From the IMG/VR virus record IMGVR_UViG_3300037420_000914: a stretch of 64,000 nt of DNA; one strand, given 5' to 3'. Of this stretch, positions 1-61,478 are shown piece by piece. The translations under genes and the position numbers were made by a program. The stretch's first letter is position 1, and the number at the start of each line of letters is the position of its first letter. The notes under the pieces are model-generated. The model was not told where the DNA came from. It did no database searches and was given only the letters and a program-made list of their open reading frames with translations. The DNA comes from an uncultured virus (IMG/VR IMGVR_UViG_3300037420_000914). Taxonomy: Duplodnaviria; Heunggongvirae; Uroviricota; Caudoviricetes.

Positions 1-362
1 CTGCGTTCGTCATCCGCAATCTGGAAGCTAGCGCCGCGGCGATCAAGGAAGCCGAATCGCAGATGGCCGCTCGCAGGAAGGCGCTGGAAAACCGCGCCGC
101 GCGCATCAAGGACTACCTGCTGGCAAACATGATGGTCGCGGGCATCCAGAAGATCGAATGCCCGTTCTTCAAGCTGGCCGTGCGCGAGAACCCGCCTGCC
201 GTGGAAATCTACGAGCCGGGGACCATCCCCGCCGAGTTCATGACGCAGCCGGTCGCGCCGCCTCCTGCACCGAACAAGACCGCCATCGCTGGCGCCCTGA
301 AGGCTGGCATCGAAGTGCCCGGCTGCAAGCTCACGCGCGGCGTGCGCCTCGAGATCAAGTGA
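1..362 (+). CDS. Siphovirus Gp157 family protein (5' truncated by window)
   Basis: RKALENRAARIKDYL...RENPPAVEI...PNKTAIAGALKAGIEVPGCKL pattern; frame open to window start. Confidence 0.85.
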   Translation, partial: AFVIRNLEASAAAIKEAESQMAARRKALENRAARIKDYLLANMMVAGIQKIECPFFKLAVRENPPAVEIYEPGTIPAEFMTQPVAPPPAPNKTAIAGALKAGIEVPGCKLTRGVRLEIK

Positions 363-414
363 TTGGGCGGATTGCGCAATACGGCTGGGTATTGAACGAG
401 AGACGGAGAACCCC

Positions 415-1104
415 ATGAACAACACAGTCCCCATTGAATACGGCGAATTTGTCGGAGAGCCGGTAGAAGTGCCTGCAATGCGAGTGGCGGGAGTGCCGCA
501 GTGGCAGTCGATTGAGACGGCTCCGAAGGATGGCCGCACGATTCTGCTGGGCCATTACAACTCTCACGGCAAGTGGCGCACGTTGCGCGGGCAGTGGTTC
601 TCCGCCGCCACCATTGCGGAAACGTGGGAGGACGACGAGTGCCCCGAAGGGTGGTACGAAACGTCAGTCGAATGCGATGACGATGTAAACGCTTGGTGGA
701 CGGAACCCACGCACTGGAAGCCTCTCGACCCGCCTCCCGGCGCTGCTCCTTCCCCCATCACCGATGCAGTAGCACCCGCTGGGATGGTGGATGTGAACGC
801 GCTGCATCGCGACATCATGAATCTGCCGCTGAAGCCCGGGTGGGCCGGCAATGACTTGGCTCTGTATGCCGAAGGCCACCGTGACGCCCGCCACGCTGCC
901 GCAGAACTCGTGTGCGCCGCTCTCGCTGCCTCACCAGCAGCACCGGCCACCCAGCCAGAAGCCGAGAAGGCAGATGCGGTGGATGCGAAGTCCATTTGGT
1001 GCGAAATCGCCGAAACAGCGCCCTTGTGCGTCATCAAAGGGAAGAAGGGGATTTTCCTTGATGAAGCTGCGTGTGTTCGCTTGGGAACAGCCCTGGAGAT
1101 GTGA
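415..1104 (+). CDS. Mosaic hypothetical protein with DUF551-like domain
   Basis: WQSIETAPKDG...PTHWKPL motif; RBS GGAGA upstream. Confidence 0.7.
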   Translation: MNNTVPIEYGEFVGEPVEVPAMRVAGVPQWQSIETAPKDGRTILLGHYNSHGKWRTLRGQWFSAATIAETWEDDECPEGWYETSVECDDDVNAWWTEPTHWKPLDPPPGAAPSPITDAVAPAGMVDVNALHRDIMNLPLKPGWAGNDLALYAEGHRDARHAAAELVCAALAASPAAPATQPEAEKADAVDAKSIWCEIAETAPLCVIKGKKGIFLDEAACVRLGTALEM

Positions 1105-1331
1105 TGCGAAAACTCACCCTCTATCGCGACGATTCAACGACGCAAGTCGTGTTCGAGAACGTCAAGCACTTCTTCTGGACGGCAGGCAACACCGTCTTGA
1201 CCATCGCGCAAGTCACCAACGCAACGACCGGCGCACACCGCTACATCCATTGGCCGCGTGAACGCTTCTGTTGGTATCGCGACGAAGCCCAAGACGCTGC
1301 CATCGCATCCCAGGAGAAGCAACATGGGTGA
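1104..1331 (+). CDS. Hypothetical protein
   Basis: TGATG coupling to upstream gene, GGAG RBS. Confidence 0.6.
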   Translation: MRKLTLYRDDSTTQVVFENVKHFFWTAGNTVLTIAQVTNATTGAHRYIHWPRERFCWYRDEAQDAAIASQEKQHG

Positions 1332-1590
1332 AATTGTCGAAATGATGCTGGACGGCGACCTGTGCGAGGGCTGTGGCGTCTACATGGGCAGTCCCGGCCA
1401 AGGATTCCCGCGCCGCTGCTCGGATTGCGCGAAAGACGAACGCGCCAGAAAGCATCAGGCCACGCTCGCGCACCACCAGCAGATCAAGAAAGTCCCGTGC
1501 CCAACGTGCGGCCGGAAGGTGAAGGCGATTGGCCTATCCGACCACCAGCGCGACGCGCACGGCGCGAAGGAGAAGCCGAATGCCGATTGA
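1324..1590 (+). CDS. Hypothetical zinc-finger protein
   Basis: CEGC, CSDC, CPTC...HQRDAH motifs; AGGAG RBS. Confidence 0.65.
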   Translation: MGEIVEMMLDGDLCEGCGVYMGSPGQGFPRRCSDCAKDERARKHQATLAHHQQIKKVPCPTCGRKVKAIGLSDHQRDAHGAKEKPNAD

Positions 1591-1810
1591 ACCCACCAAG
1601 CAATACCCGAAATACCGCGTGATTCAGTGGATCGACACGAGCCCGAAGGCAATGCGTCGAAGGCAAGCAACCATCCTCTTTGGCGTACAGGCCCAGACCG
1701 TAAAGGGCGGCAAGTGGATGCACTGCTACGCGAAGAACGAGGCATTGATTTTCAAGTCGCACGACGAGGCGAGTGCTGCCATCGCAAGTATCACAGGGGG
1801 CAAGACATGA
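1580..1810 (+). CDS. Hypothetical protein
   Basis: AAGGAG RBS; overlap coupling in operon. Confidence 0.55.
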   Translation: MPIEPTKQYPKYRVIQWIDTSPKAMRRRQATILFGVQAQTVKGGKWMHCYAKNEALIFKSHDEASAAIASITGGKT

Positions 1811-2004
1811 GCACCACCGAGCCGATGCAGGGGCTGGCGGATGACGACCTGCGCGAACTTGCATATTCGGCGCACGAAGAGGCGATGAGCTTTGGCCTGT
1901 CGCACGAAACGTTCCTGCGCTACTTCAAGACGATCCGCAATCGGGCCTCCGAAGTCGAAGCATCCCGCCAGCGCCCCGCCGCGCAAGCCGCACCCAAGGA
2001 CTGA
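1807..2004 (+). CDS. Hypothetical protein
   Basis: ATGA coupling; operon context. Confidence 0.55.
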   Translation: MSTTEPMQGLADDDLRELAYSAHEEAMSFGLSHETFLRYFKTIRNRASEVEASRQRPAAQAAPKD

Positions 2005-2007
2005 AGC

Positions 2008-2160
2008 ATGAGGCCAATCCTAGACACCGCCATCGCAGTGCTCTACAGCGCTTTCGCGGTCTACAGCGGCGATGCTGTCATCTCATGGGTTGCAGGCTGG
2101 CTTGGAGCCATGTGCGTGATCGGCTGGGGAACTTACTTTGCCGGAAGGACTGAAGCATGA
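2008..2160 (+). CDS. Small hydrophobic membrane protein (50 aa, not in ORF track)
   Basis: Own translation MRPILDTAIAVLYSAFAVYSGDAVISWVAGWLGAMCVIGWGTYFAGRTEA; AAGGA RBS; flanked by 16-bp direct repeats. Confidence 0.6.
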   Translation: MRPILDTAIAVLYSAFAVYSGDAVISWVAGWLGAMCVIGWGTYFAGRTEA

Positions 2161-2987
2161 CCGACACCACCAAACCTCAAACCGACCGCGCCGAGCCGAT
2201 GAATGAGCTTGCGGGATGGTTGCGCGAACGCCGCGACAACGCACGGCACATAGCTGACCTCAGGCAAGGCACCGACCGCAACGGCTGGCTGGAAGATGCC
2301 GCATATTTCGATTGGGCCGTCAAGATCGTCGAGGCATCCCGCCGCGAATCCGAAGTACGCGCATCTAGCGGGAAAGCGGATGGCCTTCCACAGCTTGTCA
2401 TGTGCCCGGCGTGCTTTGCTGAATGCGATCCGAGACAACGCCCCGCCGCGCAAGCCGCGAGCGCGGAATGCATCAGCGTTGAGATGATGGAAGAAGCTGC
2501 GCGTAAGGTCGGCTTCGACCCCATCCCTGGCAGGTTGATACTACTCGCTGGCGTCCTCAATGGAATGCTTGCCGCCACTCCCACAGGAGAGCGCCCCGCC
2601 GCACCAGCACAGGCAGCGGTGACGGATGCGCTGCGAATCGCCGACGCCTTGGAGAGAGCGGCCGGCATCAACGGAAGCTACCACCAGCAAGCGGATTGGC
2701 AACGCTATACCCAACGTGAAGGTGCACGGCTGCTACGCCTTCTCGCCCAAGCATCCCCAGCACAGCCCTCTGGTGTGGATGCGATGCCCACGAGTTGGGA
2801 ACTGTCGTTCGGCTCTGACGATGAGGAAGAGCCCGGCAAGTGGCGTGTGCACCGCCGCCATGGAAGCATCAACGACCGTGAATGGACTCTTCTCGCTGAA
2901 GCCGAAACGCCGAGCGCCGCCATCGCAAAAGCCCTGCGCCCTGACCTGTCCACCGCCCTCACCGGGGCCGCAAAGGAGACGAAATGA
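2157..2987 (+). CDS. Mosaic hypothetical protein
   Basis: 276-aa ORF of short segments joined by Ala/Pro linkers; ATGA coupling at both ends. Confidence 0.65.
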   Translation: MTDTTKPQTDRAEPMNELAGWLRERRDNARHIADLRQGTDRNGWLEDAAYFDWAVKIVEASRRESEVRASSGKADGLPQLVMCPACFAECDPRQRPAAQAASAECISVEMMEEAARKVGFDPIPGRLILLAGVLNGMLAATPTGERPAAPAQAAVTDALRIADALERAAGINGSYHQQADWQRYTQREGARLLRLLAQASPAQPSGVDAMPTSWELSFGSDDEEEPGKWRVHRRHGSINDREWTLLAEAETPSAAIAKALRPDLSTALTGAAKETK

Positions 2988-3244
2988 ACATTTGTCCGAA
3001 CTGTGGGGCGTGGGGCGACGTAGGCGCTGGCCACGCGTGCATCAGCACCGGGGCAGCAGCACAGCCCGCGCAGGAGCCGGTGACGGGCGATGACGATTCG
3101 GATGCGCTAACCATCGCCTACATGCAAGGCTTTTCGGATGGCAAGACAGCAGCCCGCGCCTCCACCCCTTCCTCTCAGGAGAGCGCCGCCGCAGCGTGGA
3201 AAGATGCAGAGGGCGTCGATTCACCTGACGGAGAACAGCGATGA
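2984..3244 (+). CDS. Hypothetical protein
   Basis: AAGGAG RBS, ATGA coupling. Confidence 0.55.
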   Translation: MNICPNCGAWGDVGAGHACISTGAAAQPAQEPVTGDDDSDALTIAYMQGFSDGKTAARASTPSSQESAAAAWKDAEGVDSPDGEQR

Positions 3245-3486
3245 GCGAATGGATTGCCGTTTCAGACGAGCCGCCGCCGCATGAAGAGCCCGTGGTGTAC
3301 GCGCGCCCCAACCCGCGCCGCCCCGGCACATGGCATATCGGCATCGCCTACTGGACCGTGAGCCAGAAGTGGAATCCCGAGGCCGAGTCCACGCAAGCCC
3401 CGCAAGGGTTCACGCACTGGAAGCCGCTGGGCGAGCAGCCGCGAGTTACCCGTCGCGTGCGAACAACTGACGGAGAACAGCGATGA
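3241..3486 (+). CDS. DUF551-like protein
   Basis: MSEWIAVSDEPP...FTHWKPL; flanked by 20-bp direct repeats. Confidence 0.65.
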   Translation: MSEWIAVSDEPPPHEEPVVYARPNPRRPGTWHIGIAYWTVSQKWNPEAESTQAPQGFTHWKPLGEQPRVTRRVRTTDGEQR

Positions 3487-3680
3487 AAGTGCAACATCTG
3501 ATCGGCAAGCTGCGCTACACGCAACAGGAAATGCGCGACACGGCGGCGGCCATGAGGCGCGCCGGCATCGCGGTCGCTCACGCCGACGAATTGGCGGGCG
3601 CGGCCAACATCATCGACTCGTGGATCGAGGGCATCGACGCCGAAGCCGATGCTGGCGTGAAGGGACCGGAACATGGCTGA
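3483..3680 (+). CDS. Hypothetical protein
   Basis: GGAG RBS, ATGA coupling. Confidence 0.55.
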   Translation: MKVQHLIGKLRYTQQEMRDTAAAMRRAGIAVAHADELAGAANIIDSWIEGIDAEADAGVKGPEHG

Positions 3681-4023
3681 CACGCAACCCCTCAGCGTCC
3701 GACTCCACTTCGCGCTTGAGCGTGCGCGGAGAGACGCCACGTTTTTCCGCTTTGAAGGCGGTGGCCAGTTCGGCACTTGGCAAGAGGCGAGGCAGGATGA
3801 CCACCGCGCCACCCCGTTCTACACCGCCCACGATGTCAAGAAGATCGTGGAAGACGTATGTGGCGAGAAACCGTCCGAATGCCGTTGGCCGACGAAACCG
3901 TTGGGGATGGTGCAAGTCACTCTGCCTGACGGAACCAGCGCAGCTCTACCGCCTGAGCGGGCCTACTTCGATGCGTGGGCAATGCAGGAGTTGGAGAACA
4001 ACCTGAAGCACATTGCTGGCGTG
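3673..4023 (+). repeat. 351-bp direct repeat, copy A (copy B at 61041-61391)
   Basis: Direct comparison; one synonymous difference seen (3813 C vs 61181 A). Confidence 0.95.
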
Positions 4024-4044
4024 GAGGTGCGAGATGGCCTTTGA
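3673..4044 (+). CDS. Hypothetical protein (copy 1 of duplicated cassette)
   Basis: First 117 aa identical to 61041..61478. Confidence 0.7.
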   Translation: MADTQPLSVRLHFALERARRDATFFRFEGGGQFGTWQEARQDDHRATPFYTAHDVKKIVEDVCGEKPSECRWPTKPLGMVQVTLPDGTSAALPPERAYFDAWAMQELENNLKHIAGVEVRDGL

Positions 4045-4453
4045 GCACTACCGCGAACACGAGGTCTACGAGAACGCAGGCGCGCTGCAGCTCGCGCACG
4101 GCACGCTCAACGGAAAGCGGCTCGTTTGGGTCGGCTCGGACGGCGTGCGCGGGAGATGGCTCACGCTGGCCGAATTTCGTCAGCTCGTGCAGGACGTCAT
4201 GGACTTTGCCGGGCGCATCGGGCCGGACGATGCTGGCGTGCAGCCGTCTGCGCCCGACCTGCTGCGACGCGTGCGCGACGCGCTGTGGAGCGAGCACCTG
4301 ACCGGGCTGCCGCTGCTTGAGGCAGTTCGCAATGGGTTCATCAGCGAACTGGATGCGGCAATCGGATCACGCATCGACGGACACCCAGTTGGCCTGCCTG
4401 ACCGTGTGACCGCTGCTGATCCCCAACGTAACGAAGGAGGCCAGCATGGCTGA
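4034..4453 (+). CDS. Hypothetical protein
   Basis: GGAGGT RBS before ATG 4034. Confidence 0.6.
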   Translation: MAFEHYREHEVYENAGALQLAHGTLNGKRLVWVGSDGVRGRWLTLAEFRQLVQDVMDFAGRIGPDDAGVQPSAPDLLRRVRDALWSEHLTGLPLLEAVRNGFISELDAAIGSRIDGHPVGLPDRVTAADPQRNEGGQHG

Positions 4454-5069
4454 CCGCCCGACACCTGAATTTCTGCGTGAGTGCTTCGAGTGCCGTGATG
4501 GTGTTCTGTATTGGAGGGAGCGGCCCGCAAGCCACTTTATGAAGCACGCCGATCAGTTGGCCTTCAACACCAAGACGGCCGGAAAGAAGGCTGGGAAGCT
4601 CGGCGCCAAAGGCTATATGACTGTGGGTTTGCGAATCAATGGCAAAGCTATCAGCATGGCGGCGCATCGAGTGGTTTGGGCCATACACCATGGGAGGTGG
4701 CCCGAGATGCACATCGACCACATCAATCGCGTGCGAAATGACAACCGCATTGAGAACCTGCGCGATGTGACTCCAGCGGAAAACAACAGGAATGCCGCTA
4801 ACAAGCGCGTCTATCCTTATGTCGCTCCGCATACGAATGGCGGCGGCAGGTTTGCTGCGCAGGTAAAGATAGGAGCGCGCGACATTCATATCGGCGTGTT
4901 CGACTCCGCAGAAGAAGCGAACGCGCACCGGCTGAATGTCTGCGCCGAACTGGAAGTTCTCGCGCGCAGCCTCGCCAAGAAATCGAAGATCGGCGGGCCT
5001 AGCAGATCGTTCGGCAACACGCTTCCCCCCTCAGACGCTGATGCAGCAGCGAAGAAAGGAACCCCATGA
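4446..5069 (+). CDS. HNH homing endonuclease with AP2-like C-terminal domain
   Basis: AHRVVWAIHHG...IDHINRVRNDNRIENLR; FAAQVKIG...HIGVFDSAEEA. Confidence 0.88.
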   Translation: MADRPTPEFLRECFECRDGVLYWRERPASHFMKHADQLAFNTKTAGKKAGKLGAKGYMTVGLRINGKAISMAAHRVVWAIHHGRWPEMHIDHINRVRNDNRIENLRDVTPAENNRNAANKRVYPYVAPHTNGGGRFAAQVKIGARDIHIGVFDSAEEANAHRLNVCAELEVLARSLAKKSKIGGPSRSFGNTLPPSDADAAAKKGTP

Positions 5070-5428
5070 CGATCGATGAGCTTGAAGCAATCGCACAGGC
5101 GGCCACTCCGGGACCGTGGCACTGGAATTTCGACGCGAAGGGCTATCCCGGCCGCGTGGGCAAGACCGTGCCCTGCGAGCCGGTCGAGCACTGCGGATAT
5201 GACTCGCACTGCATCGCGCTTACCTATGACGGAAACGAGCGATTCGATTCGCGGGCCAACGCCGAGCACATCGCAGCGTTCTCCCCTGCCCGAGTGCTCC
5301 CCATGCTGGAGATCGTCAGGGCCGCGAAGCACGTCGCCTATTCCAACGGCTTCGACGCAGCGTTGCCTGACAAGCAGGAGCGCCTTCGCACCGCCCTTGC
5401 CGCATTCGATGAACTGGAGGGAAAGTAG
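5066..5428 (+). CDS. Ead/Ea22-like protein
   Basis: LEAIAQAATPGPW...ANAEHIAAFSP motif. Confidence 0.65.
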   Translation: MTIDELEAIAQAATPGPWHWNFDAKGYPGRVGKTVPCEPVEHCGYDSHCIALTYDGNERFDSRANAEHIAAFSPARVLPMLEIVRAAKHVAYSNGFDAALPDKQERLRTALAAFDELEGK

Positions 5429-5662
5429 ATGGCTGATGTGAACGACGATATGCCATGCGGTCGCTGCGACGTTGGCATCTATAGCTACGCCGCCGCAACG
5501 ACCGCTCTGGCTCACGCACTCGCGCAGCAAAGTCCGCATGCCCGGCGGCCCCCTCGCTGCAAGTCACTGGACCGGGACTGCGTTGGTGCCTGCCACTTCA
5601 TCACTGCATTGAACGCAGATCCGGATGGCTTCCAGCGCATCAAATCGGAGATCGAGGCATGA
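5429..5662 (+). CDS. Hypothetical protein
   Basis: GGAGG RBS; operon packing. Confidence 0.45.
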   Translation: MADVNDDMPCGRCDVGIYSYAAATTALAHALAQQSPHARRPPRCKSLDRDCVGACHFITALNADPDGFQRIKSEIEA

Positions 5663-6150
5663 CCACATCCCCCGACAAGCTGCTGTCTATCGCAAGAGAA
5701 AGCGGAGGCGCGGTTCACGACATGGGCCGTGGCCTGTACGCCGTTACCTTCGGAGAAGTGTCGCTGCCGGAATTTGTCGAGCGCATACGCCCCGAACAAC
5801 AAGAACTGATCGACCGGCTGCGGCTGGAAGCGCAGACCCACGCGCAGGAGGCCCGCACCCAGCGGGCGACCGTGCATGAAATCTATCGGCTCGTCACCGG
5901 AGGGACCGGCGAGCCAGGCGACTGGAATGGGGCCGAGCCCGTGCGGCGGGCATTCGAGCGCATCCGCCAGGACGAGCGGGAGAAGGTGCGCGAGCTTCTG
6001 ACCGAAGCGGTCGATTTCTGGCAGACCTACTCCTCGATGAGCGAGCAGTACCAGGATGACATGGCCGCCGAGCGCAACGCCATGCTCGAAAAGATGGAGG
6101 ACGCCATTCGCTCTATCAGCACCAGCGAGAGTGAAGATGACACCCACTGA
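5659..6150 (+). CDS. Hypothetical protein
   Basis: ATGA coupling; 163 aa. Confidence 0.6.
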   Translation: MTTSPDKLLSIARESGGAVHDMGRGLYAVTFGEVSLPEFVERIRPEQQELIDRLRLEAQTHAQEARTQRATVHEIYRLVTGGTGEPGDWNGAEPVRRAFERIRQDEREKVRELLTEAVDFWQTYSSMSEQYQDDMAAERNAMLEKMEDAIRSISTSESEDDTH

Positions 6151-6475
6151 TGCACAGCGAGAGGGGATTGCACCATGCCCATTCTGCGGAGGGCACGCCT
6201 CTGTCGATGAGGACACGCCGCTGATGGTGACGGTGGAATGCGATGACTGTATGGTGACCACTTGGACTTATGGCGATGCACACGAAGCCATCGCCGCATG
6301 GAACCGTCGCGCATCCCCCGACGAACACCTGCTGCGACAGGCGGCAGAGGCGCTGGAGGATGTCGTCGGCTGGGTGCCGGGAAGCAACTGGCACGCCGAT
6401 GCACCGCTGGAATCTGTGAAGCGTGCTCGCAAGATCGCCGCCGCGCTGCGTCAGCGCATGGGAGGCACAAAGTGA
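6137..6475 (+). CDS. Lar-like (restriction alleviation family) zinc-ribbon protein
   Basis: PCPFCGG...ECDDC...AIAAWNRR motif. Confidence 0.65.
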   Translation: MTPTDAQREGIAPCPFCGGHASVDEDTPLMVTVECDDCMVTTWTYGDAHEAIAAWNRRASPDEHLLRQAAEALEDVVGWVPGSNWHADAPLESVKRARKIAAALRQRMGGTK

Positions 6476-6774
6476 GCGAAGTGATGGAGCTTGAAGGCGG
6501 GCGCATCGCCGTGGACTGCTTCCGCTGCAAAGGCTGCGGCGAGGCGGACGCCAGCGGCTTTGCCTGCCCGTCCTGCGGCGGGAAGGGCTATTTCGTCCAC
6601 AAGAAGCCGACCCGCGACTACGAGGCGGAAGGCGCGCGGGCCTATGCGGCAGGCAAGAGAATTGGCGCGAATCCGTATCGCTACGGCTGGCCGATGCACG
6701 GTTGGACGCTGGGCTGGATCAACGCGCGGGATCTCTCGCGCACTCCCCCGCAGGACTCCGGGAGCAGCAAATGA
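6472..6774 (+). CDS. Hypothetical zinc-finger protein
   Basis: CFRCKGCG...CPSCGGKG; GGAGG RBS; GTG start. Confidence 0.55.
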   Translation: MSEVMELEGGRIAVDCFRCKGCGEADASGFACPSCGGKGYFVHKKPTRDYEAEGARAYAAGKRIGANPYRYGWPMHGWTLGWINARDLSRTPPQDSGSSK

Positions 6775-7151
6775 GCGAAGCACCGAAGCGAATCCAACTC
6801 AGTCGGGCGAAGGGCTGGCGCATGCCGGAAAACACCGTCAGCGTCGCGCGTCCCGGCTTCTGGGGAAACCCGTTCTATGTGTCGAAGTGGCGTGACGCAG
6901 CAACCTGTGTAGCCCTGTTCCGAAACGCCATGCGCGGTGTCTGGAATCCTGCTACCAGCGCGCATTGCCCAACGGTCTGGAATGGCTATGGCGAGCATCA
7001 AGGCTGGTTGTTCAAGTTGGGCAACCACCCGATGGACATGGTGGGTCAGCTGCGCGGAAAGAACCTGGCCTGCTGGTGCAAGCTGGGCGAGCCGTGCCAC
7101 GCGGACGTGCTGCTCGAACTTGCGAATGCGGACTCCGTGAGCAAGGAATAG
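6771..7151 (+). CDS. DUF4326 family protein
   Basis: PKRIQLSRAKGWRMP...WGNPF...LRGKNLACWC...PCHADVLLELAN. Confidence 0.85.
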   Translation: MSEAPKRIQLSRAKGWRMPENTVSVARPGFWGNPFYVSKWRDAATCVALFRNAMRGVWNPATSAHCPTVWNGYGEHQGWLFKLGNHPMDMVGQLRGKNLACWCKLGEPCHADVLLELANADSVSKE

Positions 7152-7157
7152 GCAGGA

Positions 7158-7388
7158 ATGAGCAGTAACGGGAACGACGCGCCGCTGTTTCTGGACGATG
7201 CCGAACTGGTCGCCCTGACCGGCCGGAAGCTCAAGAGCAAGCAGGTCGAATGGCTGCGGCACAATGGCATCGCCTTCAGGGTCAACGCCACTGGGCATCC
7301 TGTCGTCACGCGCTCCGCAGTGGAAAGCCGCGAGACTACGACGCCTGCACCCATTCGCGGCTGGACACCGAGGGTGATCGGAGCATGA
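7158..7388 (+). CDS. DUF4224 family putative excisionase
   Basis: FLDDAELVALTG...KQVEWLRHNGIAFRVNATGHPVV, directly upstream of integrase. Confidence 0.8.
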   Translation: MSSNGNDAPLFLDDAELVALTGRKLKSKQVEWLRHNGIAFRVNATGHPVVTRSAVESRETTTPAPIRGWTPRVIGA

Positions 7389-8554
7389 GCATGGGTCGCA
7401 AGCCGACTCGCTGGCTGAACCTGCCGAAGGGCATGCGTGCGCGCCCGCGAGGCAACAAGGTCTTCTACTACCTGGACACGGGCGCCAAGCCGCGCAAGGA
7501 GATCCCGCTTGGCAGCGACTACGGTGTTGCCGTCCAGAAGTGGGCTGACCTCACCAGCAAGCCCGCGCCAGCACCGGACGCGCCGAACACGTTCCTCGAT
7601 GCCGTCGACGGCCGCGGCATGGTGAAGGGATACCGCAAGGACGTCATCCCGAAGAAGGCGCCACGCACGCAGCAGGACAACGAGACCGAGCTCGAGTGGC
7701 TGCTGAAGTTCTTCGGAGATCCGCCGGCACCGCTGGAAAGCATAGAACCGGTGCACATCCAGCAGTACATGGACTGGCGCGTGCAAGCCGCGCGCGATCT
7801 AGCGGATAAGAAGAACGCCGAACGACGCCGCGATGGGCGCCCCGAGCAGCCGATCGATCCCGACATCGGCCAGGTGCGCGCGAACCGCGAGAAGGCCCTG
7901 TTCTCGCACATCTGGAACTACGCCAGGCGCAAGGGCCTGACCAAGGATTCGAACCCCTGCGCGGGCATCAAAGGCTTCAGCGAGGATGGCCGCGACGTCG
8001 TGCCAGATGCTGAGCTCGTCGCGCGCGTGCAGAAGGAAGCTGACACGCCGCTACAGTTCGCGATGCGCCTTGCGGACATCGTGGGCCAGCGCCCGGCCGA
8101 TGTGCTGCGCGTGAGCGAGACCGACATCGATGGCCAGATCCCCGGGGGCGTGCTGAAGGTGCGCCAGGGCAAGACCCAGACGAAGCTGCGCATAGTGATT
8201 GAGGGGGCGCTGGCCGATCTGCTGCTCGAGATCCGCGAATACAAGCGCGCCATCGCAAAAGAGCGCGCCGAGGCCGACAGGCCAGCCGTGCACACGCTGA
8301 AACTGCTGGTGCGCGAGGACGGCCAGCCGCTGACTGGCGGGATGCTGCGCTCGCGCTTCGATGACGCACGCGAGCGCGCCGGCGTGCAGAAGGACCTCTT
8401 CCAGTTCCGGGACTACCGCGCCAAGGTCGCGACCGAGGTGGATGAGGCGGAAGGCACCCGAGCTGCCCAAGCACTACTGGGCCACACGACCGAGTCCATG
8501 ACGGTCACGTACATCCGCCACAAGGTTGGCCGGAAGGTGCGCTCAAGGAAATGA
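7385..8554 (+). CDS. int: Tyrosine integrase
   Basis: GQRPAD, QGKT, FRDYRAK, LLGH, TYIR catalytic motifs; adjacent to tRNA-derived att core. Confidence 0.93.
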   Translation: MSMGRKPTRWLNLPKGMRARPRGNKVFYYLDTGAKPRKEIPLGSDYGVAVQKWADLTSKPAPAPDAPNTFLDAVDGRGMVKGYRKDVIPKKAPRTQQDNETELEWLLKFFGDPPAPLESIEPVHIQQYMDWRVQAARDLADKKNAERRRDGRPEQPIDPDIGQVRANREKALFSHIWNYARRKGLTKDSNPCAGIKGFSEDGRDVVPDAELVARVQKEADTPLQFAMRLADIVGQRPADVLRVSETDIDGQIPGGVLKVRQGKTQTKLRIVIEGALADLLLEIREYKRAIAKERAEADRPAVHTLKLLVREDGQPLTGGMLRSRFDDARERAGVQKDLFQFRDYRAKVATEVDEAEGTRAAQALLGHTTESMTVTYIRHKVGRKVRSRK

Positions 8555-8555
8555 A

Positions 8556-8785
8556 TTGCGGAACAACCCGCTTTTTTTGCGGAAGTCCGCTGCGAAATTG
8601 ATAGCGCCAAAGCCGCTCCGTTATTGGTAGGACGTGCAGGATTCGAACCTGCGACCAACGGATTAAAAGTCCATCGCAAACTCAAGGCAAATCAATGACT
8701 TACGTCTAAAATTGTTCCGCAAACACAGAGAAATCGCCCCTCGGAGAGCTAGTATTGGCGCGGGCCTGCGAAAATTTGCGGAACA
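8556..8785. other. attP: attP region with arm-type repeats and IHF site
   Basis: TTGCGGAACA at 8556-8565 and 8776-8785, inverted at 8713-8722, variant TTGCGGAAGT at 8577-8586; AATCAATGACTTA at 8690-8702 fits the IHF consensus WATCAANNNNTTR. Confidence 0.8.
8625..8672 (-). other. att core: 3' half of tRNA-Lys(TTT), not a complete tRNA
   Basis: Minus strand GGACTTTTAATCCGTTGGTCGCAGGTTCGAATCCTGCACGTCCTACCA has anticodon arm, T arm and CCA but no D arm or 5' acceptor strand. Confidence 0.9.
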
Positions 8786-11241: not shown

Positions 11242-12501
11242 TTACGTGAGCATCTCCGGTGAAAAGTGAAGCGTCTGCGCCATCGCGCCATTCGCGTGAT
11301 AGCTGTGGCCTAGAAGCTCGCGCGCTGCGGCCAGCCCCTTGTCAGCGGCCCACGCGTTGCGCGCGGCAAGCGTCGGGTGCTGGTAGACCATCATCCCGCG
11401 CTCTTCCTTGCCGCTGTGCACGATGAAGTGCTTGTGGTGCATGTGGCCCGTGTGGCAGATGCGGTAGGTAGCCTGCCCCCACATCTGGGCGAAGTCCGCA
11501 GCGAAGATGCCCGGCAGCTCACCCAGCCGCGCCTTGTCGCCGTGATGCGTGGCGATCATCGTCTTGCCGAACAACATCGCCCAGTACGGACGGATCGACT
11601 GCTCCACGATCACGCGCGGCTCGCGCTCGAAGATGCGGGTGAACAGTTTGCGCATCCACCACGCCGATAGCGGATCGTGATTGCCCGGCTTGATCACCAG
11701 CCGCACGCGAGCGTACCGACGCAGGCCGTGCGTGACGGCCGCCTCGATCACCTCTGAGCCGACGTCAGCGATCTTGGGATAGCGGCCATCGACGTCCAGC
11801 AAATGCTTGCTGGCGGGGGTCAGCGGCGCATAGCCGTCCGAGTCAGTGAAGTCGCCCAGGATCACAAGCACCAGTTCCTGCGCCGCAGGCAGGTTGTCCA
11901 TCAGCCAGCAGGCACCGGTCAGAAGCGTTTCGCGGGCGATGCCCAAGTCCCAGCTGCCAGAACCGGTTTCCTTGTCCCAGGCAAGCGCGCCGACATGCCC
12001 ATCTGCGATCGTCACCTGGTTGAGGATGTTCGCAGGCCCCAGAACATCCGGCAGCGGCTTGGGTTGCACTGGCTCGACGCAGGCGATGCGCCGGTCTAGC
12101 GCCTCTTCGATCGCTGCCTCGCGTCCTTCTGGGCTTTGCCGCTCCCAGGTTCGTTCTACCCCTCCATCGGCGCCGCGCTGCACCGTGACCTTGCCCATGA
12201 GGTAACCGGGCGCTACGCCGCTGTCCCAATGTCCCGGCGCATGCCCTTTTCGCGCCTCGTCCACCGTTTCCCGGTAGGAGGAAAGGCGCTCTTTCAGTTC
12301 TTCGTACGAGGGCATCGGTTCGCCCTCAAGCGTCTTTCGATCCTCGCGCTTGACGAATCCGCGCTGCACGGCCATCGCAACGCGAGAGTCGAAGGTGCGG
12401 GACTGAACGCCATCCAGCAACTGCCAGCCGTGGGTGCCCTTGCGCTTATAGGCTTCTGCCGCCTGCAGCGCCAGAACGTCGGGCAGCGATGGCGTGGGCA
12501 T
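11242..12501 (-). CDS. Calcineurin-like metallophosphoesterase
   Basis: ADGH, LGD, GNHD, HHGD, GHMHH motifs. Confidence 0.85.
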   Translation of the reverse strand: MPTPSLPDVLALQAAEAYKRKGTHGWQLLDGVQSRTFDSRVAMAVQRGFVKREDRKTLEGEPMPSYEELKERLSSYRETVDEARKGHAPGHWDSGVAPGYLMGKVTVQRGADGGVERTWERQSPEGREAAIEEALDRRIACVEPVQPKPLPDVLGPANILNQVTIADGHVGALAWDKETGSGSWDLGIARETLLTGACWLMDNLPAAQELVLVILGDFTDSDGYAPLTPASKHLLDVDGRYPKIADVGSEVIEAAVTHGLRRYARVRLVIKPGNHDPLSAWWMRKLFTRIFEREPRVIVEQSIRPYWAMLFGKTMIATHHGDKARLGELPGIFAADFAQMWGQATYRICHTGHMHHKHFIVHSGKEERGMMVYQHPTLAARNAWAADKGLAAARELLGHSYHANGAMAQTLHFSPEMLT

Positions 12502-45298: not shown

Positions 45299-45523
45299 CT
45301 ATGCCAGTTCCGCGATCACGCGCATGCCCGGCCAGCTTGGGACGAATCGGTATTCGACATCAACGTCGCGCGGCATTGCGCCGGACGCGAGCGCGCTCTC
45401 CATCAAGGAATCGCCGACGGCGTTGATCCTCCGTGCTGCATCAACCACTTCGACTGCAGCCGGTTGTGGGCCGAACATCTCTCGGCATGTCAGCGCGGCA
45501 TAAGCTCTCAGGGACGCGTTCAT
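45299..45523 (-). CDS. Hypothetical protein
   Basis: ATGA coupling to NinX-like gene. Confidence 0.5.
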   Translation of the reverse strand: MNASLRAYAALTCREMFGPQPAAVEVVDAARRINAVGDSLMESALASGAMPRDVDVEYRFVPSWPGMRVIAELA

Positions 45524-45831
45524 GGCAGTTCCACCGTTTCCCCGAACTTGCTGGCGACATAGGCACGCATGGCGGCGATCAGGGGTGTGGGACCGCCGGC
45601 CTGCACGTCCTGTGCGCCGCAGATCGCCTCCCAATACGGGTGATCGGCAGAACCTGTGTGAAGTTCGATGCGCTCCCGCTCGATGATCGGGCCGCCGTAT
45701 TCCCAATCGGTCGAGTAAGCGAGTGGGACGCGCGGTGTCCCCGGATTGACGTCACCTGTCGGGTCTTCGTTCGCCTTCGCCACAGCCGCATCCAGCAGTT
45801 CGCCTTCCAGCTCCGCCACCTTGTATTCCAT
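45520..45831 (-). CDS. NinX / DUF2591 family protein
   Basis: YSTDWEYGGPIIERERI...GPTPLIAAMRAYVASKFG. Confidence 0.85.
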   Translation of the reverse strand: MEYKVAELEGELLDAAVAKANEDPTGDVNPGTPRVPLAYSTDWEYGGPIIERERIELHTGSADHPYWEAICGAQDVQAGGPTPLIAAMRAYVASKFGETVELP

Positions 45832-52735: not shown

Positions 52736-53202
52736 AGCGTCGTGAATGCAGGGTGTTGGGCCAGCAGTGCGGCGCGCAGCTTCGCGCCAGTGCGTGTGCC
52801 GCCGTTGTTCGTCGGACACCAGCTGAAGGTGTGCTCGGCCGCGATCTCGCGAATGCGCGGCATGTGAAAGCCGTCGCCGACCTGCACGTCATGCACCTCA
52901 CCGGTGGGTTTGCCGAATCGCAGGAACAGCGTGCGCGGTCTGGCACGAGCAATGTCGTCGGTTACGCGCAGGACGCGCGCCAGCGGGATCGTGCGATTGG
53001 CCCAGAGGTGAACATCGGCGTCGACCAGCATGCGCCAGTCCATGCGCTCGAGCGGCATGTCGTCGCGCACGTATAGCGTGTCAGCCGCCTCGCTGAATTC
53101 CCCGCCGATCATGCTGACGACGACCGGCCCGGCTGGTGTGTAGCCCTGCCTGCGGGAGTCCAGCAGGTTGCGGGCGTTGGTGGCGTACCAAGGGCGCGGC
53201 AT
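52732..53202 (-). CDS. Hypothetical replication-module protein
   Basis: Coupled between initiator and helicase. Confidence 0.65.
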   Translation of the reverse strand: MPRPWYATNARNLLDSRRQGYTPAGPVVVSMIGGEFSEAADTLYVRDDMPLERMDWRMLVDADVHLWANRTIPLARVLRVTDDIARARPRTLFLRFGKPTGEVHDVQVGDGFHMPRIREIAAEHTFSWCPTNNGGTRTGAKLRAALLAQHPAFTTL

Positions 53203-53933
53203 CAGTGAACCCCCTCGGTCCAGTCGCCCGCACCGTTCGCGGGCCGACTACCTCCGCCCTTTCCGGCGGATTTGCTGTCGTTGGCCTTGCGTAGCCAAGT
53301 GCGCCAGACCGCCTCCCAGTCCTTGCGTGGGTGCGCGAACTCCCAATCGCGCATGGCGTCGGTCTCGCGCCTCCAGTCGACGAGCGGCGCATGGGACTGC
53401 GCCCACGCGATCATCTCGGGCGTTACGCTGAAGCCTTCTGGACAGCGTTTGCTGCCGCGCGGCTCCGACGCGCGCTTAGAACCCGAAGGGTTCTTCTTCT
53501 CTTCTCTTCTCTTCTCTTCTCTAGCTAACGCATCTGTAACGCTAGATGCGTTACGGTCAGCGTTATCGTGACCGTTACTGGAACCGTTACCGCGATGGTT
53601 GGCGACTCGTTTTGCGGTCTGAGCTCGTGCTTTTGCACTAGCTCCGTTGTGCCGATCGAACTTTTCGAGCGCGACGCCTTGGTCGTCCAAGTGCAGCCAG
53701 CCAGCGTCAGCGACTGCTCGCGCGAATCCTGAAACGCCGATGATCGAATCCAGCAACGGTGCTGTAACGCCGCGAGCGTTACCGCTGGTCGTGTGCTGAT
53801 CGAACCAGCGGAACAAGCGCATCAACTTCCCGACGGTCTTGTCCGGGTCATCCCAGCCCAGCCGCGCCGTGATGGCCAGCACCTCCGGCTTTTCGGGCAG
53901 GTTGCACTCGAACTTGATCCAGTCGCCGGCCAT
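53202..53933 (-). CDS. Phage replication initiator protein
   Basis: MAGDWIK...KPEV...FDRHNGASAK.RA...EEKRREE...DWEAVWRTW. Confidence 0.82.
   Translation of the reverse strand: MAGDWIKFECNLPEKPEVLAITARLGWDDPDKTVGKLMRLFRWFDQHTTSGNARGVTAPLLDSIIGVSGFARAVADAGWLHLDDQGVALEKFDRHNGASAKARAQTAKRVANHRGNGSSNGHDNADRNASSVTDALAREEKRREEKKNPSGSKRASEPRGSKRCPEGFSVTPEMIAWAQSHAPLVDWRRETDAMRDWEFAHPRKDWEAVWRTWLRKANDSKSAGKGGGSRPANGAGDWTEGVH
53490..53592. promoter_or_regulatory. Candidate replication origin inside initiator gene
   Basis: Clustered (G)TAACG/CGTTA(C) repeats, inverted repeat TAACGCATCT..AGATGCGTTA, adjacent CTTCT run. Confidence 0.45.
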
Positions 53934-55994: not shown

Positions 55995-56258
55995 TCAAGC
56001 CTTGGCGGCGCGCGACTTGCGCGGTGCAGGCAGTGGCACCTCGCCATAGACGTGGTTCATGGTCAGAGCCAGTCCACGGGCGGCGGCGAACTCAATGAGC
56101 TTTCGCGCCGTTGCCGGAAGCACCGTCTGCCCTTTGTCCAAGAGAGACACGTTGGCCTGCGTGCAACCGAGCGCGTCGGCCATCTCGTGCTGGGTGGCCC
56201 CCAGCCTTTCCCGGATCGACTTGAAAACGACCTCGTCGTGGTGATTTGGGGTGCCCAT
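55995..56258 (-). CDS. Cro-like XRE repressor
   Basis: IRERLGATQHEMADALGCTQANVS HTH; divergent from repressor. Confidence 0.85.
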   Translation of the reverse strand: MGTPNHHDEVVFKSIRERLGATQHEMADALGCTQANVSLLDKGQTVLPATARKLIEFAAARGLALTMNHVYGEVPLPAPRKSRAAKA

Positions 56259-56264
56259 GCAGCG

Positions 56265-56303
56265 AGCATAAAAGCATGCCTTGAATTAATCAAGGAAAAC
56301 TTG
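56265..56303 (-). promoter_or_regulatory. pR-like promoter with two operators
   Basis: TTGATT-N17-TATGCT (minus); operators AAAG-N5-CTTG at 56271-56283 and CAAG-N5-CTTG at 56291-56303. Confidence 0.8.
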
Positions 56304-56329
56304 TGAGCGAGCGATACAACCGCCCGCGC

Positions 56330-56782
56330 ATGACTGTGTGGGAAATCATCGAACTGACCATGAACCGGATGGTTCCGCGCCGCGACCAGAAGTGGCTGGC
56401 TGCGGAATTGGGCGTTACCGCGGCGGCGATCCACGAATGGAAAAAGACCCGCGTGCCCCCGGCGCGGTATCGGGCGATCGCCGAAAAGATTCACATCTCG
56501 ATCGACCAACTTGAGGGCCTTGAGCCGCTTCCCTGGGACAGGGGCTGGCCGTTCCCCGACATCGAGCAGGACCGCTTCTGGCAATTAGGGGTCAAGGAGC
56601 GCGACCAGGTCCAGGCCAAGGTGCTTGAGCTGATCGAACAACTAGAGCAGGCCCGCCAACGAAGCCAGGGCGGGCAAATTGGCGTGTCAGGCACTCACCT
56701 CTTCGGAGAAGTGAGGTCGCCTGCCCCGAGCAACACAAATTCCACGAAGAAGACAAAAAAGCCACGAAAGCCTCGCGGCTGA
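56330..56782 (+). CDS. CI-like repressor (HTH, no S24 peptidase domain)
   Basis: QKWLAAELGVTAAAIHEWKK HTH; start could alternatively be 56303. Confidence 0.75.
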   Translation: MTVWEIIELTMNRMVPRRDQKWLAAELGVTAAAIHEWKKTRVPPARYRAIAEKIHISIDQLEGLEPLPWDRGWPFPDIEQDRFWQLGVKERDQVQAKVLELIEQLEQARQRSQGGQIGVSGTHLFGEVRSPAPSNTNSTKKTKKPRKPRG

Positions 56783-59723: not shown

Positions 59724-59947
59724 GCAAGTGGTACGAGGTCAAAGTCACGACGGTGCGCGTGATGCTCGTTGAAATCGAAGACGACATGCCCGACGACGAG
59801 GCCCGCGAATCCGCGATGTTTGAAGCGCTCTCAGAGGCTGGCACGGATGGTGTCTCCGAAGCCGAAATCGAGTCCGGCCCTTATGCATCGGAGAACCGCG
59901 AGCTGGAGTCGCTGAGGCGTCACGCTGACGAGGTGCTGCCGCTATGA
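59720..59947 (+). CDS. Hypothetical protein
   Basis: GAGGT RBS; coupled. Confidence 0.55.
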   Translation: MSKWYEVKVTTVRVMLVEIEDDMPDDEARESAMFEALSEAGTDGVSEAEIESGPYASENRELESLRRHADEVLPL

Positions 59948-60678
59948 CCTCACAACGCAGCTACAGCGGCGATGCGGCGAGCGGATGGGAACGTCGGCAA
60001 GCGTGGGGCGTTGGGACGGGTGTGCTGCATTGGGGCGACTGGAAGCCCTGCACCGAGGCCGACGCGCGGCGCGTCACCGGACTTCGGACGTGGGAAGTGC
60101 GTCGCATCGCGCCTGCCACCAAAACTGCTCTTACCAACGACAGCGGCGATGCGGCGAAGTACGTCTTCGTTCGCCTGACAAGACCTGAAGGTTACGAAGA
60201 CGTTCACCCCGAGCTTGTTCTTGAGGACGCGAACATCAACCCCGCATTCAAGGCCGAGATTGTCGCCCCCTCCACCTCGCTTACCCACGCAGCGAGAGCG
60301 CAGAGCCGCATCGATCAATTCATCTTCAAGTGGATTTGCAGCGAATACGAATTTAACACCGACGACTTCAAGCAAGCGAAGAGGGATTTCCTTGAAGCCG
60401 CCTACGCCGAAGGCCGGGCAGATCAGAGAGAGGAACTTGCCGCGCTGCACCGCGACATCATGAATCTACCGGTGGGCACCCCGGGATGGGCTGGCAATGA
60501 TCTTGCCCTCTACAAAGAAGGCCACCGAGACGCCCGCCACGCTGCCGCCGAGCTGGTGACCGCCGCCCTCTCCTCCTCCGCCGCCCCTGCGCGAGAGGAA
60601 GCAGGAGAAGACGCGCGTGGCGTGGGCGCACCGTCTGACGCGGCACAGCCCCAACGTAACGGAGGCGCGAATGCCTGA
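59944..60678 (+). CDS. Mosaic hypothetical protein
   Basis: Shares LHRDIMNLP...HAAAELV segment with 415..1104. Confidence 0.65.
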   Translation: MTSQRSYSGDAASGWERRQAWGVGTGVLHWGDWKPCTEADARRVTGLRTWEVRRIAPATKTALTNDSGDAAKYVFVRLTRPEGYEDVHPELVLEDANINPAFKAEIVAPSTSLTHAARAQSRIDQFIFKWICSEYEFNTDDFKQAKRDFLEAAYAEGRADQREELAALHRDIMNLPVGTPGWAGNDLALYKEGHRDARHAAAELVTAALSSSAAPAREEAGEDARGVGAPSDAAQPQRNGGANA

Positions 60679-61048
60679 ATTCAACGAAGCCCGCGAGCGC
60701 GAAATTTTCGATCGCATGCACGTTCGCATGACCGGCCCGAAAGGCGGCTTCACGCACTGGTCCATCTTCAACGAAATCGAGAAGGCAGCCGCATGGAAAG
60801 CGTGGCAGGCGCGTGCTTCGATGAGCGAAGGCGGGCCGGACTTCACCGCAACGGCCCGCGCGGCGCTGCTGTGGGTGCTCTTTCACCACCAAGGGTTCAA
60901 CAGCTCGGTCGGCGTGCCGATCCGCTACGCGCTTGGTATGGGCGCCGACGAAGAGCTGAGCGATGCCCAGATTGCGGAGGCGCGGCGCTGGGCTGACATC
61001 TGGAGCTCGCCGGTCGCCGATGGCGTGAAGGACAAGAACAATGGCTGA
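60671..61048 (+). CDS. Hypothetical protein
   Basis: GGAGG RBS; ALLWVLFHHQG. Confidence 0.6.
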   Translation: MPEFNEAREREIFDRMHVRMTGPKGGFTHWSIFNEIEKAAAWKAWQARASMSEGGPDFTATARAALLWVLFHHQGFNSSVGVPIRYALGMGADEELSDAQIAEARRWADIWSSPVADGVKDKNNG

Positions 61049-61391
61049 CACGCAACCCCTCAGCGTCCGACTCCACTTCGCGCTTGAGCGTGCGCGGAGA
61101 GACGCCACGTTTTTCCGCTTTGAAGGCGGTGGCCAGTTCGGCACTTGGCAAGAGGCGAGGCAGGATGACCACCGCGCCACACCGTTCTACACCGCCCACG
61201 ATGTCAAGAAGATCGTGGAAGACGTATGTGGCGAGAAACCGTCCGAATGCCGTTGGCCGACGAAACCGTTGGGGATGGTGCAAGTCACTCTGCCTGACGG
61301 AACCAGCGCAGCTCTACCGCCTGAGCGGGCCTACTTCGATGCGTGGGCAATGCAGGAGTTGGAGAACAACCTGAAGCACATTGCTGGCGTG
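61041..61391 (+). repeat. 351-bp direct repeat, copy B
   Basis: Matches 3673-4023. Confidence 0.95.
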
Positions 61392-61478
61392 CTGGCGTCT
61401 TCCGCAAAGACGCTCGCACCGTCAAACGCTGACGCCGCCCTCGCGGCAGATCAGATGAACAAGGAGCAGAGCAAGTGA
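61041..61478 (+). CDS. Hypothetical protein (copy 2 of duplicated cassette, different C-terminus)
   Basis: Identical to 3673..4044 up to HIAGV. Confidence 0.7.
   Translation: MADTQPLSVRLHFALERARRDATFFRFEGGGQFGTWQEARQDDHRATPFYTAHDVKKIVEDVCGEKPSECRWPTKPLGMVQVTLPDGTSAALPPERAYFDAWAMQELENNLKHIAGVLASSAKTLAPSNADAALAADQMNKEQSK

Follow-up and report, generated by a model that had tools for sequence, protein, structure and literature searches.

How can the small early genes of a phage be duplicated, exchanged with other phages and even fused to one another while their reading frames stay intact? This question is raised by a stretch of 64,000 nucleotides (hereafter the window) from an uncultured member of the Caudoviricetes, IMG/VR record IMGVR_UViG_3300037420_000914, which comprises most of a temperate, lambda-like siphophage with a G+C content of 63%. 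Its early-left operon runs on the + strand from about 56303 to the end of the window and resumes at position 1 to reach the integrase gene (7385-8554). Within this operon lie two arrays of small genes, array 1 (2771-4453) and array 2 (59944-61478), 3.2 kb together, in which the seven-letter word TGGCGTG recurs at gene and segment ends. A first-pass annotation had interpreted these genes as stop-less cassettes joined in frame at the word, and had proposed an integron-like or microhomology-driven system of gene shuffling.

From the comparison of the window with other array-bearing contigs, we consider it rather probable that the arrays are shaped by short-homology module shuffling at the 7-bp core TGGCGTG, together with punctuation blocks and selection for intact frames. 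The arrays are built from short coding modules without a start or stop of their own, separated by reusable punctuation blocks of 20-50 nt, each of which gives the last 6-20 codons and the stop of the upstream frame, a ribosome site and the next start (often ATGGCTGA, with start and stop overlapping). Where no punctuation follows a module, the next one is fused to it in frame, so that the loss of a block would create a fusion protein. The word would be the core between a left module and the punctuation or module on its right, i.e. the exchange point: because it is always Gly-Val, recombination between two copies would keep the frame and recreate the word, and the arrays would stay recombination-competent. 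Modules could thereby be copied, deleted, swapped and fused, within one genome or between co-infecting phages, unrelated ones included, and the punctuation blocks would render each module expressible wherever it is inserted. The joints themselves would come from recombination of a general kind at short homologies or microhomologies, by template switching, host RecA pathways or the annealing proteins of phages, with the 7-9 bp core as substrate, aided where present by blocks of 17-50 nt and followed by selection for intact frames; a dedicated enzyme would not have to be invoked.

TGGCGTG is enriched in the arrays and held in one frame

The six exact copies of the word that had been pointed out on the + strand (3653, 4017, 4234, 60618, 61021 and 61385) are all present and read GGC-GTG, i.e. 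Gly-Val, in the best coding frame; a seventh + strand array copy at 2841, absent from the earlier list, reads Trp-Arg and lies at no junction. Enrichment over the background of this GC-rich genome, on which the cassette proposal depends, was observed: the two window arrays hold these 7 copies in 3.2 kb against 0.43 expected (Poisson 4e-7, or 9e-5 with the duplicated pair counted once), and over both strands of the whole window there are 31 copies, where shuffled sequence gave 17.1 +/- 3.9 and reached 31 in 0 of 100 shuffles. The reverse complement of the word is found in neither array, its sole copy in the + strand early region being at 59230. A codon-shuffled null, which the first-pass annotation had suggested for comparing early and late genes, gave a significant result for the former: of 45 early genes, 4 have GGCGTG in frame at 2-12 codons upstream of the stop (0.55 expected, P = 0.002, 1000 codon shuffles), as does 1 of the 73 other genes (1.03 expected, P = 0.64). 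One of the four early cases is the Gp157 gene, where the motif belongs to a conserved protein C-terminus and is not a junction, and without the two genes beside the duplicated cassette the count becomes 3 of 43 (0.62 expected, P = 0.019). The window alone thus gives modest support for enrichment of the word at gene ends, and the strong support comes from other array-bearing contigs.

Scanning a viral collection with 17 nt of the reused junction tail brought up a 5.8-kb fragment (G002), a 64,031-nt contig rated complete by CheckV (G003) and the contig of L010, to which a 21-nt stretch of the tail (4413-4433) matches exactly at three places; a metagenome scan with the junction 17-mer added L134. 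The matches to the 17-mer were mostly chance matches, with the junction context present in 0 of 22 among genome contigs and in 1 of 28 among metagenomes (L134), and L067 and its copies L111 and L112 were rejected as array relatives since they hold the 17-mer only. As a background we used 63 neighbour loci fetched around relatives of Gp157 and of the DNA methylase, in which the word occurs 0.13 times per kb per strand, with clusters in L010 and L012 only and at most 4 copies per 2 kb elsewhere. The arrays, whose intervals in the relatives were picked after the fact, hold 13 copies in the first 3.3 kb of G003 (0.44 expected), 14 in 3.3 kb of L010 (0.44 expected) and 6 in 1.4 kb of L012 (11341-12761; 0.19 expected). 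Five arrays taken together (about 12.9 kb, coding strand) have TGGCGTG as their most frequent 7-mer: it occurs 42 times, where the remaining parts of the window and of G003 would lead one to expect 2.4 copies. All array copies are on one strand, and 47 of 50 are in the Gly-Val frame, one being Trp-Arg and two undecided. L012 has a second cluster, 7 copies in 2 kb at about 4090-6090 (+), upstream of its Gp157 gene and apart from its array.

G003 is of particular weight here as it and the window phage are unrelated: of the 118 window proteins, only 2 find a match in it, and among its own proteins are a family-A polymerase, a DUF927 primase-like protein and an SNF2 helicase. One of the two matches is a NinX-family protein (PF10765; window 45520-45831, - strand), 43% identical over 120 aa. 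On the + strand of G003, the 13 copies of the word in the array are joined by 2 in the final 0.3 kb of the contig and by 6 in the remaining 60 kb, where the - strand has 12. The end of the contig joined to its start gives no clean reading frame into the first word, so we do not claim circularity and treated the two end-parts separately. Searches of G003 gave no AAA_24 match (controls were detected), no Phage_integrase (PF00589) match (controls detected 14 of 14 times), no match to the window Gp157 (tblastn) or HNH protein, and, in a scan that covered 32 of the 47 early proteins on its + strand, nothing recognisable as an annealing protein. The densest array thus appears to do without the Sak4-like ATPase, Gp157 and the integrase, which had been named as candidate catalysts and would therefore not be needed. 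No protein family common to the arrays was found either, and the 63 neighbour loci hold no homologue of the genes in 2157-4453 (the HNH gene aside) or in 59944-61478.

The anatomy of the junctions is the same in these contigs. To the left of the word stands the end of a gene-specific module, in six cases the 17-nt block GGCTCAGCAGGTACTCG with six different right flanks. To the right stands either one of a small set of recurring blocks or the next coding segment directly in frame (window 2771 and 4234; G003 1981 and 2161; L134 110), and both continuations, the short tail that brings a stop, a ribosome site and the following start as well as the direct in-frame one, had been described correctly before. 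At window 4234, G003 1981 and 2161, L134 110 and G002 4374, the word lies at an internal fusion with neither a start nor a ribosome site after it. Among the blocks, CAGGAGAACGGCAATGGCTGA encodes the tail QENGNG and a stop and holds the ribosome site and a start that overlaps this stop, the downstream genes beginning with MAD or MAE, and its window versions are AAGGGACCGGAACATGGCTGA and AAGGACAAGAACAATGGCTGA; another one is GATTCACYTGACGGAG...ATGA, TGGCGTGCAGGAGAACGGCAATGG is found in G003, L010 and L134, and several more exist. Blocks such as CAGGAGAACGGCAATGG and CCCCAACGTAACGAAGGAGG are conserved and place a ribosome site no more than a few nucleotides away from the starts of unrelated early genes. 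A long block of about 45-50 nt, ending in the invariant CCCCAACGTAACG followed by GAAGGAGG, is present in 8 copies in five contigs (window, L010, G002, G003 and L134) before 8 different downstream genes, so that the reuse of CCCCAACGTAACG (PQRN), already noticed within the window, extends to a larger element. One of the L010 copies has a 1-nt deletion, through which the tail's own frame reads its word as Trp-Arg, pointing to a constraint on frame continuity and not on the peptide. Also in L010, a 26-codon mini-ORF between two genes (11262-11344; MRHVDGVPSVLLDADPQRNAKQENEK and stop) consists solely of the long junction element and looks like a junction left without its module. Other boundary repeats occur within the operon as well, e.g. 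AAGGACTGAAGCATGA before 2008 and 2157.

Four degenerate copies of the word had been proposed in array 1, and the relatives allowed us to judge them. TGGTGTG at 2771 is indeed a variant, as it reads TGGCGTG in G002 within a conserved 46-nt linker (96% identical to G002 4341-4386) that has unrelated sequence on both sides and whose homology ends 6 nt past the word. Likewise, the counterpart of GGGCGTC at 3211 is GGGCGTG in G002 and the exact word in L010, and the GATTCACYTGACGGAG block comes next in each case; the whole block is 91% identical to G002 5105-5146, where an extra 127-nt module stands immediately 5', and recurs at L010 12122. TCGCGTG at 3453 is a plausible variant, since it has the same 14-nt offset from a 20-nt block identical to 3227-3246. 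CCGTGTG at 4402 was misplaced: alignment with G002, G003, L010 and L134 puts the homologous word at 4390, as TGGCCTG, and homology to G002 5620-5671 begins exactly there.

The flanks of the word assort independently

We compared the bases directly to the left and right of the word in all 1225 pairs formed by the 50 array copies. At least 10 nt are common on the left and at most 2 nt on the right in 16 pairs, the reverse holds for 25 pairs, and 3 pairs are intermediate, with 10 nt or more in common on one side but 3-9 nt on the opposite one; pairs with at least 10 nt common on both sides do not occur (0 of the 44 flank-sharing pairs). Judged by these flanks, the word is a swivel between freely assorting halves, in agreement with the earlier view that it marks frame-preserving joints.

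The 351-nt cassette present in both window arrays differs between them at one base, and identity stops exactly after GCTGGCGTG: at the words that close the two copies (4017 and 61385), the left flank is common over 30 nt and the right flank over 0 nt. The annotation was right that the motif precedes both copies and that identity ends exactly after the next word, but not in letting the unit begin at the upstream word. Both copies have TGGCGTGAAGG 20 nt before the ATG, yet only 2 of the 9 intervening bases match, indicating that the near-identical unit of this recent copy event starts at the ATG. A second duplication, L134 1-115 and 339-453, also ends exactly after the word, where one copy continues with AAGACG... 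and the other with CAGGAGAACGG...; the window and L134 duplications are independent of each other. The duplicated gene has no DNA relative in the viral, metagenome or genome contigs, and the phage collection gave only short weak matches. At the protein level, however, its 123-aa product consists of an N-module and a C-module, only one of which is present in each of the metagenome relatives P0002, P0003 and P0004, where the joint reads CGV or SGV.

Modules that stand free in one phage are found as parts of longer genes in another. Within longer genes of G002, residues 20-77 correspond to the free-standing window gene 1807-2004 (98%), residues 123-228 to L010 14250-14651 (63%) and residues 140-183 to G003 2560-2724 (64%). 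Together with the two duplications that end after the word, these three cases bear out the proposal that the modules are units without their own stop. A further similarity, between L012 12407-12541 and window 4030-4164, came from a noisy all-against-all tblastx comparison and was dropped as BLASTP did not bear it out.

Assembled contigs from four soil or rhizosphere runs (X4, X7, X10 and X11) point to the same joints in natural populations. Contigs branch at 2783, 3673, 4023, 4390 and 5023, and a contig spanning exactly 3673-4023, i.e. the duplicated cassette, was assembled in X4, X7 and X11. Its depth of 318.7 in X7, where the flanking contigs have 48.3 and 43.6, means that the cassette sits in more contexts than the two of the window. 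Circle-like joints did not appear in the contigs of these runs, in which rare rearranged molecules would go unseen. Furthermore, the tail TLPPSDADAA, reported earlier as a reused tail, proved to be a junction too, as another context joins it at 5023 in X7. In three of the four runs, contigs with the G002-like form of array 1 (window 1-7200) have several times the depth of those with the window's form (in X10, 330.7 compared with about 40-48), which makes the window's version a minority form in those runs.

Origin of the joints and comparison with known systems

Several observations weigh against short-homology shuffling centred on the word. All the evidence is comparison of assembled metagenome sequences, and no recombination event was seen directly. 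Seven base pairs are short for efficient homologous recombination, and the use of the word in all 44 flank-sharing pairs may point beyond chance microhomology, while pairs that differ on the left and share the right flank are also expected from a conserved functional element placed after unrelated genes. The codon-shuffle signal within the window is modest. The 13-nt box CCCCAACGTAACG shows no synonymous change in its 8 copies although the codons before it change amino acid, which hints at selection on the nucleic acid itself. The protein of gene 4034-4453 matched only itself among 40 candidates, so that the boundary at 4234 remains a candidate joint. Finally, between the window and G002, whose similar segments are 92-98% identical, only about 4 of 20 segment ends lie at the word or at most 6 nt from it, the rest being at Pro/Ala/Gln linkers (QRPAAQAA at 1969 and 2436, GERPAAPAQAA around 2573-2628) or gene starts. 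This breakpoint map rests on G002, as gene-by-gene relatives of the array genes did not turn up, and it qualifies the expectation that homology would break at the motif: some breaks do, e.g. at 4390, and the majority do not. TGGCGTG is therefore the most prominent of several joint types in the window, and the dominant one in G003, L010 and L012. At the 1969 linker, where homology to G002 breaks, the 1807 module is fused in frame through the linker in G002, and soil contigs carry the joint 1984->2439. At the end of the 46-nt linker, soil contigs carry the joint 2783->2929. Genes 415-1104 and 59944-60678 have a common internal module (786-965 and 60432-60611, repeats D2 and D9; ALHRDIMNLP...GWAGNDLALY.EGHRDARHAAAELV) with 78-91% nucleotide identity and unrelated flanks, whose joints lack TGGCGTG.

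Could the word be a dedicated crossover site? A host enzyme (e.g. RecBCD at a Chi-like word) or a phage nuclease would then make 3' ends at the word, which would prime on other copies. We think this unlikely; if true, soil phages of unrelated descent would have in common a cassette system that resembles exon shuffling, works in frame and builds and rebuilds their early accessory proteins from modules with neither start nor stop.

The host-determined form, in which the word is, or is part of, a site where a host enzyme makes recombinogenic ends (Chi-like for RecBCD, or the target of a nicking nuclease), has in our estimate a rather small chance of being correct. A 3' end stopping at the word would anneal to another copy and prime copying downstream, leaving joints at the 3' edge of the word, and indeed homology stops at the word or 0-2 bases beyond it in 16 of 16 left-shared pairs. 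The single strand of all array copies would also be explained, as would the occurrence of the word in phages without shared recombination genes, which is expected of a site determined by the host. However, Chi acts over kilobases and not at a point; the word clusters at module ends and is not spread over the genome, with no clear excess outside the arrays (6 copies on the + and 12 on the - strand in the other 60 kb of G003); and a GC prefix is present in only 13 of 50 array copies, the conserved core being TGGCGTG without it and positions -1 and -2 carrying no information. The Chi sequence of Pseudomonas syringae is GCTGGCGC and that of E. coli GCTGGTGG, and the study describing them reports that the variant GCTGGCGT is partially recognised by the P. 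syringae RecBCD in vitro (PMC5959072); this 7+1 variant is contained in GCTGGCGTG, and the word recalls Chi in being a G-rich asymmetric 7-9-mer of single orientation. Lambdoid phages are reported to be rich in Chi sites and phages with a recombination module of their own to be mostly without them (PMC12315714), and the window phage has its own module. Should the Chi-like reading be true, one could learn from the arrays which Chi site is used by a soil host that is uncultured or unstudied.

It is improbable, in our view, that the junction blocks including the word are primarily cis-acting expression signals (a translational operator, RNA-processing site or coupling signal), with recombination as a by-product. 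The right-hand blocks do hold a ribosome site and overlapping stop and start, and the invariance of CCCCAACGTAACG in the face of changing codons before it would be accounted for. In Cluster K mycobacteriophages, a comparable 13-bp start-associated sequence (SAS) is described before unrelated non-structural genes and thought to act in translation initiation; like the blocks here, SAS and ESAS elements are short, asymmetric, conserved sequences with a ribosome site, placed in one orientation before the starts of different gene families and sometimes overlapping the upstream stop (PMC3203893). TGGCGTG differs in lying upstream of the ribosome site, in occurring also at the start-less internal fusions listed above, in being fixed in frame and in standing at homology breakpoints. 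A single reading frame in 47 of 50 copies is not needed by an RNA signal, and RNAalifold on 9 copies of the long element gave no conserved hairpin (4 pairs, -0.86 kcal/mol, 0 compensatory changes). A translational role may thus explain the invariant box, but neither the words at internal fusions nor the duplications that end at the word.

Site-specific recombination of the integron kind, where a recombinase would cut and join at the 7-bp core and cassettes would move as circles, seems very improbable. In integrons, small cassettes are arrayed in the same orientation and meet at boundaries that each hold a short conserved core, and the 7-bp core amid unrelated flanks, the cassette arrays and the strict orientation recall such boundaries. 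Here, conserved inverted repeats or attC-like hairpins are absent from the 9 long-junction copies, the sequences beside the word are low in information so that recombinase-binding arms are not evident, and the cassettes lack their own stop and are joined in frame. No integron-type integrase adjoins the array: the window integrase lies 3 kb downstream, beside a DUF4224 gene and a tRNA-like 3' fragment (seen by eye) as is normal for a phage integrase, G003 has no tyrosine recombinase match, and the arrays have no protein family in common. The integron-like interpretation of the first-pass annotation therefore does not hold.

Chance, i.e. Gly-Val written with the preferred codons of a GC-rich genome, or assembly chimeras at short repeats can be dismissed almost entirely, because even though GGC and GTG are common codons (in-frame GGCGTG at 2.3 per 1000 codons in early and 2.0 in other genes) and all relatives are metagenome contigs, the clustering is far above background in four separate contigs, gene-end position beats the codon-shuffle null, the same joints recur in contigs of four separate soil or rhizosphere runs, and a 7-nt repeat cannot, we reason, mislead an assembler.

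Short-homology shuffling, which we favour, has counterparts among phages. Promoter-early stem-loop (PeSL) cassettes of T4-like phages are described as mediating modular shuffling (PMC2839356; PMC4122927): short repeats flank small genes of unknown function in plastic regions and join otherwise unrelated sequences (PMC2839356), and recombination between repeats explains insertions, deletions and replacements between related phages, as it would here. PeSL elements are intergenic and made of promoter and terminator, whereas the repeats described here lie inside reading frames with a stop, ribosome site and start, array 1 (1800-5200) has 0 promoter-like and 0 terminator-like sites and no stem-loop, the core has only 7 bp, and exchange keeps the frame and also fuses modules into longer proteins; moreover, the carriers are a temperate siphophage and an unrelated soil phage, not T4-like myoviruses. 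The arrays thus belong to neither the integron nor the PeSL family. Susskind and Botstein reportedly proposed that short conserved sequences between exchangeable modules serve as recombination sites, and the word would resemble these linkers, except that theirs are said to be intergenic and to separate functional gene blocks, while those found here are coding, in frame and placed between individual small genes or domains. Phage Rad52-like recombinases are reported to make temperate-phage mosaics by relaxed homologous recombination, which tolerates short or diverged homology; the favoured reading fits such homology-driven mosaicism, but that work deals with longer diverged stretches (PMC3945230), in contrast to a 7-bp core. 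The known kind is hence repeat-mediated modular shuffling in phages, and what is new is that it is coding, keeps the frame and is anchored on a 7-bp core.

In the debate on whether phage mosaics arise at conserved linkers or at random joints sorted by selection, clear cases of linkers are few. The present one is unusually clean, with a 7-bp word in fixed frame, free assortment to its left and right, reusable punctuation, and the same grammar in phages with almost no common genes. It would allow small early genes, which often act in anti-defence or host takeover, to be duplicated, swapped between unrelated phages and fused without frame breaks. On a practical matter, accessory modules of this kind could be located in metagenomes, and their limits set, by means of the word and the punctuation blocks.

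Joints and neighbouring features of the window

The coordinates of the joints and of the main genes around the arrays are collected below.

Joints, junction blocks and early-left operon genes in the window
Feature	Position	Strand	Remarks
Gp157	3-362	+	early-left operon
QRPAAQAA linker repeat, copy 1	1969-1991	+	end of gene 1807-2004; second copy 2436-2465; direct repeat D6
46-nt conserved in-frame linker LLAQASPAQPSGVDA	2738-2783	+	inside gene 2157-2987; variant TGGTGTG at 2771-2777
Junction block starting GGGCGTC	3211-3254	+	tail GVDSPDGEQR and stop, ribosome site, ATGA stop/start overlap, first codons of gene 3241
Degenerate copy of the 3211 junction	3453-3488	+	TCGCGTG, 7 nt, then CTGACGGAGAACAGCGATGA
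Junction TGGCGTGAAGGGACCGGAACATGGCTGA	3653-3680	+	tail GVKGPEHG and stop, ribosome site, next start overlapping stop
Duplicated cassette, copy 1	3673-4023	+	351 nt, ATG to GCTGGCGTG; gene 3673-4044
Word and short tail GVEVRDGL with stop	4017-4044	+	ribosome site, start of next gene at 4034
Internal in-frame TGGCGTG (AGV / QPSAPD), candidate joint	4234-4240	+	gene 4034-4453, Gly-Val frame
Long junction element	4390-4453	+	TGGCCTG (degenerate word), 24 nt, CCCCAACGTAACG, GAAGGAGG, ATGGCTGA stop/start overlap
HNH endonuclease gene	4446-5069	+	PF13392, E = 4e-16; directly 3' of long junction element
Tail TLPPSDADAA..., further junction block	from 5023	+	end of HNH gene; in run X7 another context joins here, after TGGCGTG and 23 nt
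Long junction element, second window copy	60618-60678	+	TGGCGTG ... CCCCAACGTAACGGAGG ... ATGCCTGA
Junction TGGCGTGAAGGACAAGAACAATGGCTGA	61021-61048	+	tail GVKDKNNG and stop
Duplicated cassette, copy 2	61041-61391	+	
Word, then in-frame tail LASSAKTLAPSNADAALAADQMNKEQSK and stop	61385-61478	+	tail related to 5023 tail; X7 loose end behind 4023 reads into it
DNA methylase	61866-62672	+	early-left operon
AAA_24 (Sak4-like) ATPase	63063-63938	+	early-left operon

The junction at 3653-3680 is 93% identical to G003 63725-63752. The operon is tightly packed, with overlapping stop and start at 28 of the 43 listed junctions between successive early genes, and includes a DUF4224 excisionase-like gene beside the integrase; the replication, packaging, virion and lysis genes are mostly on the - strand. 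A search for the host gave matches of about 60% for the terminase, spread over many genera, and for the capsid, in 400 genomes of one class (1 unscored), a single 47% match with no taxonomy attached.

Just 3' of the integrase, at 8612-8672 on the - strand, a stretch resembles by eye the 3' part of a tRNA, with a T-arm-like GGTTCGAATCC on the reverse complement, and 18-20 nt of it are common to L012 and L013. ARAGORN found no whole tRNA gene there; the stretch probably represents the attP core. The window and the virus record G001 (31.2 kb) agree at 100% as far as G001 reaches, its last base being window 56554 (window 56001-56554 corresponding to L001 1237-1790); G001 derives from this phage or one nearly identical to it, as a fragment that lacks the early-left operon and its arrays. 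At 53488-53531, inside the - strand gene 53202-53933, TCTTC-type pentamer repeats are followed by TAGCTAACGC; this run matches 44 nt of L026 exactly and 32 nt of L027, and its repeats may be iterons of an origin that lies within a replication gene.

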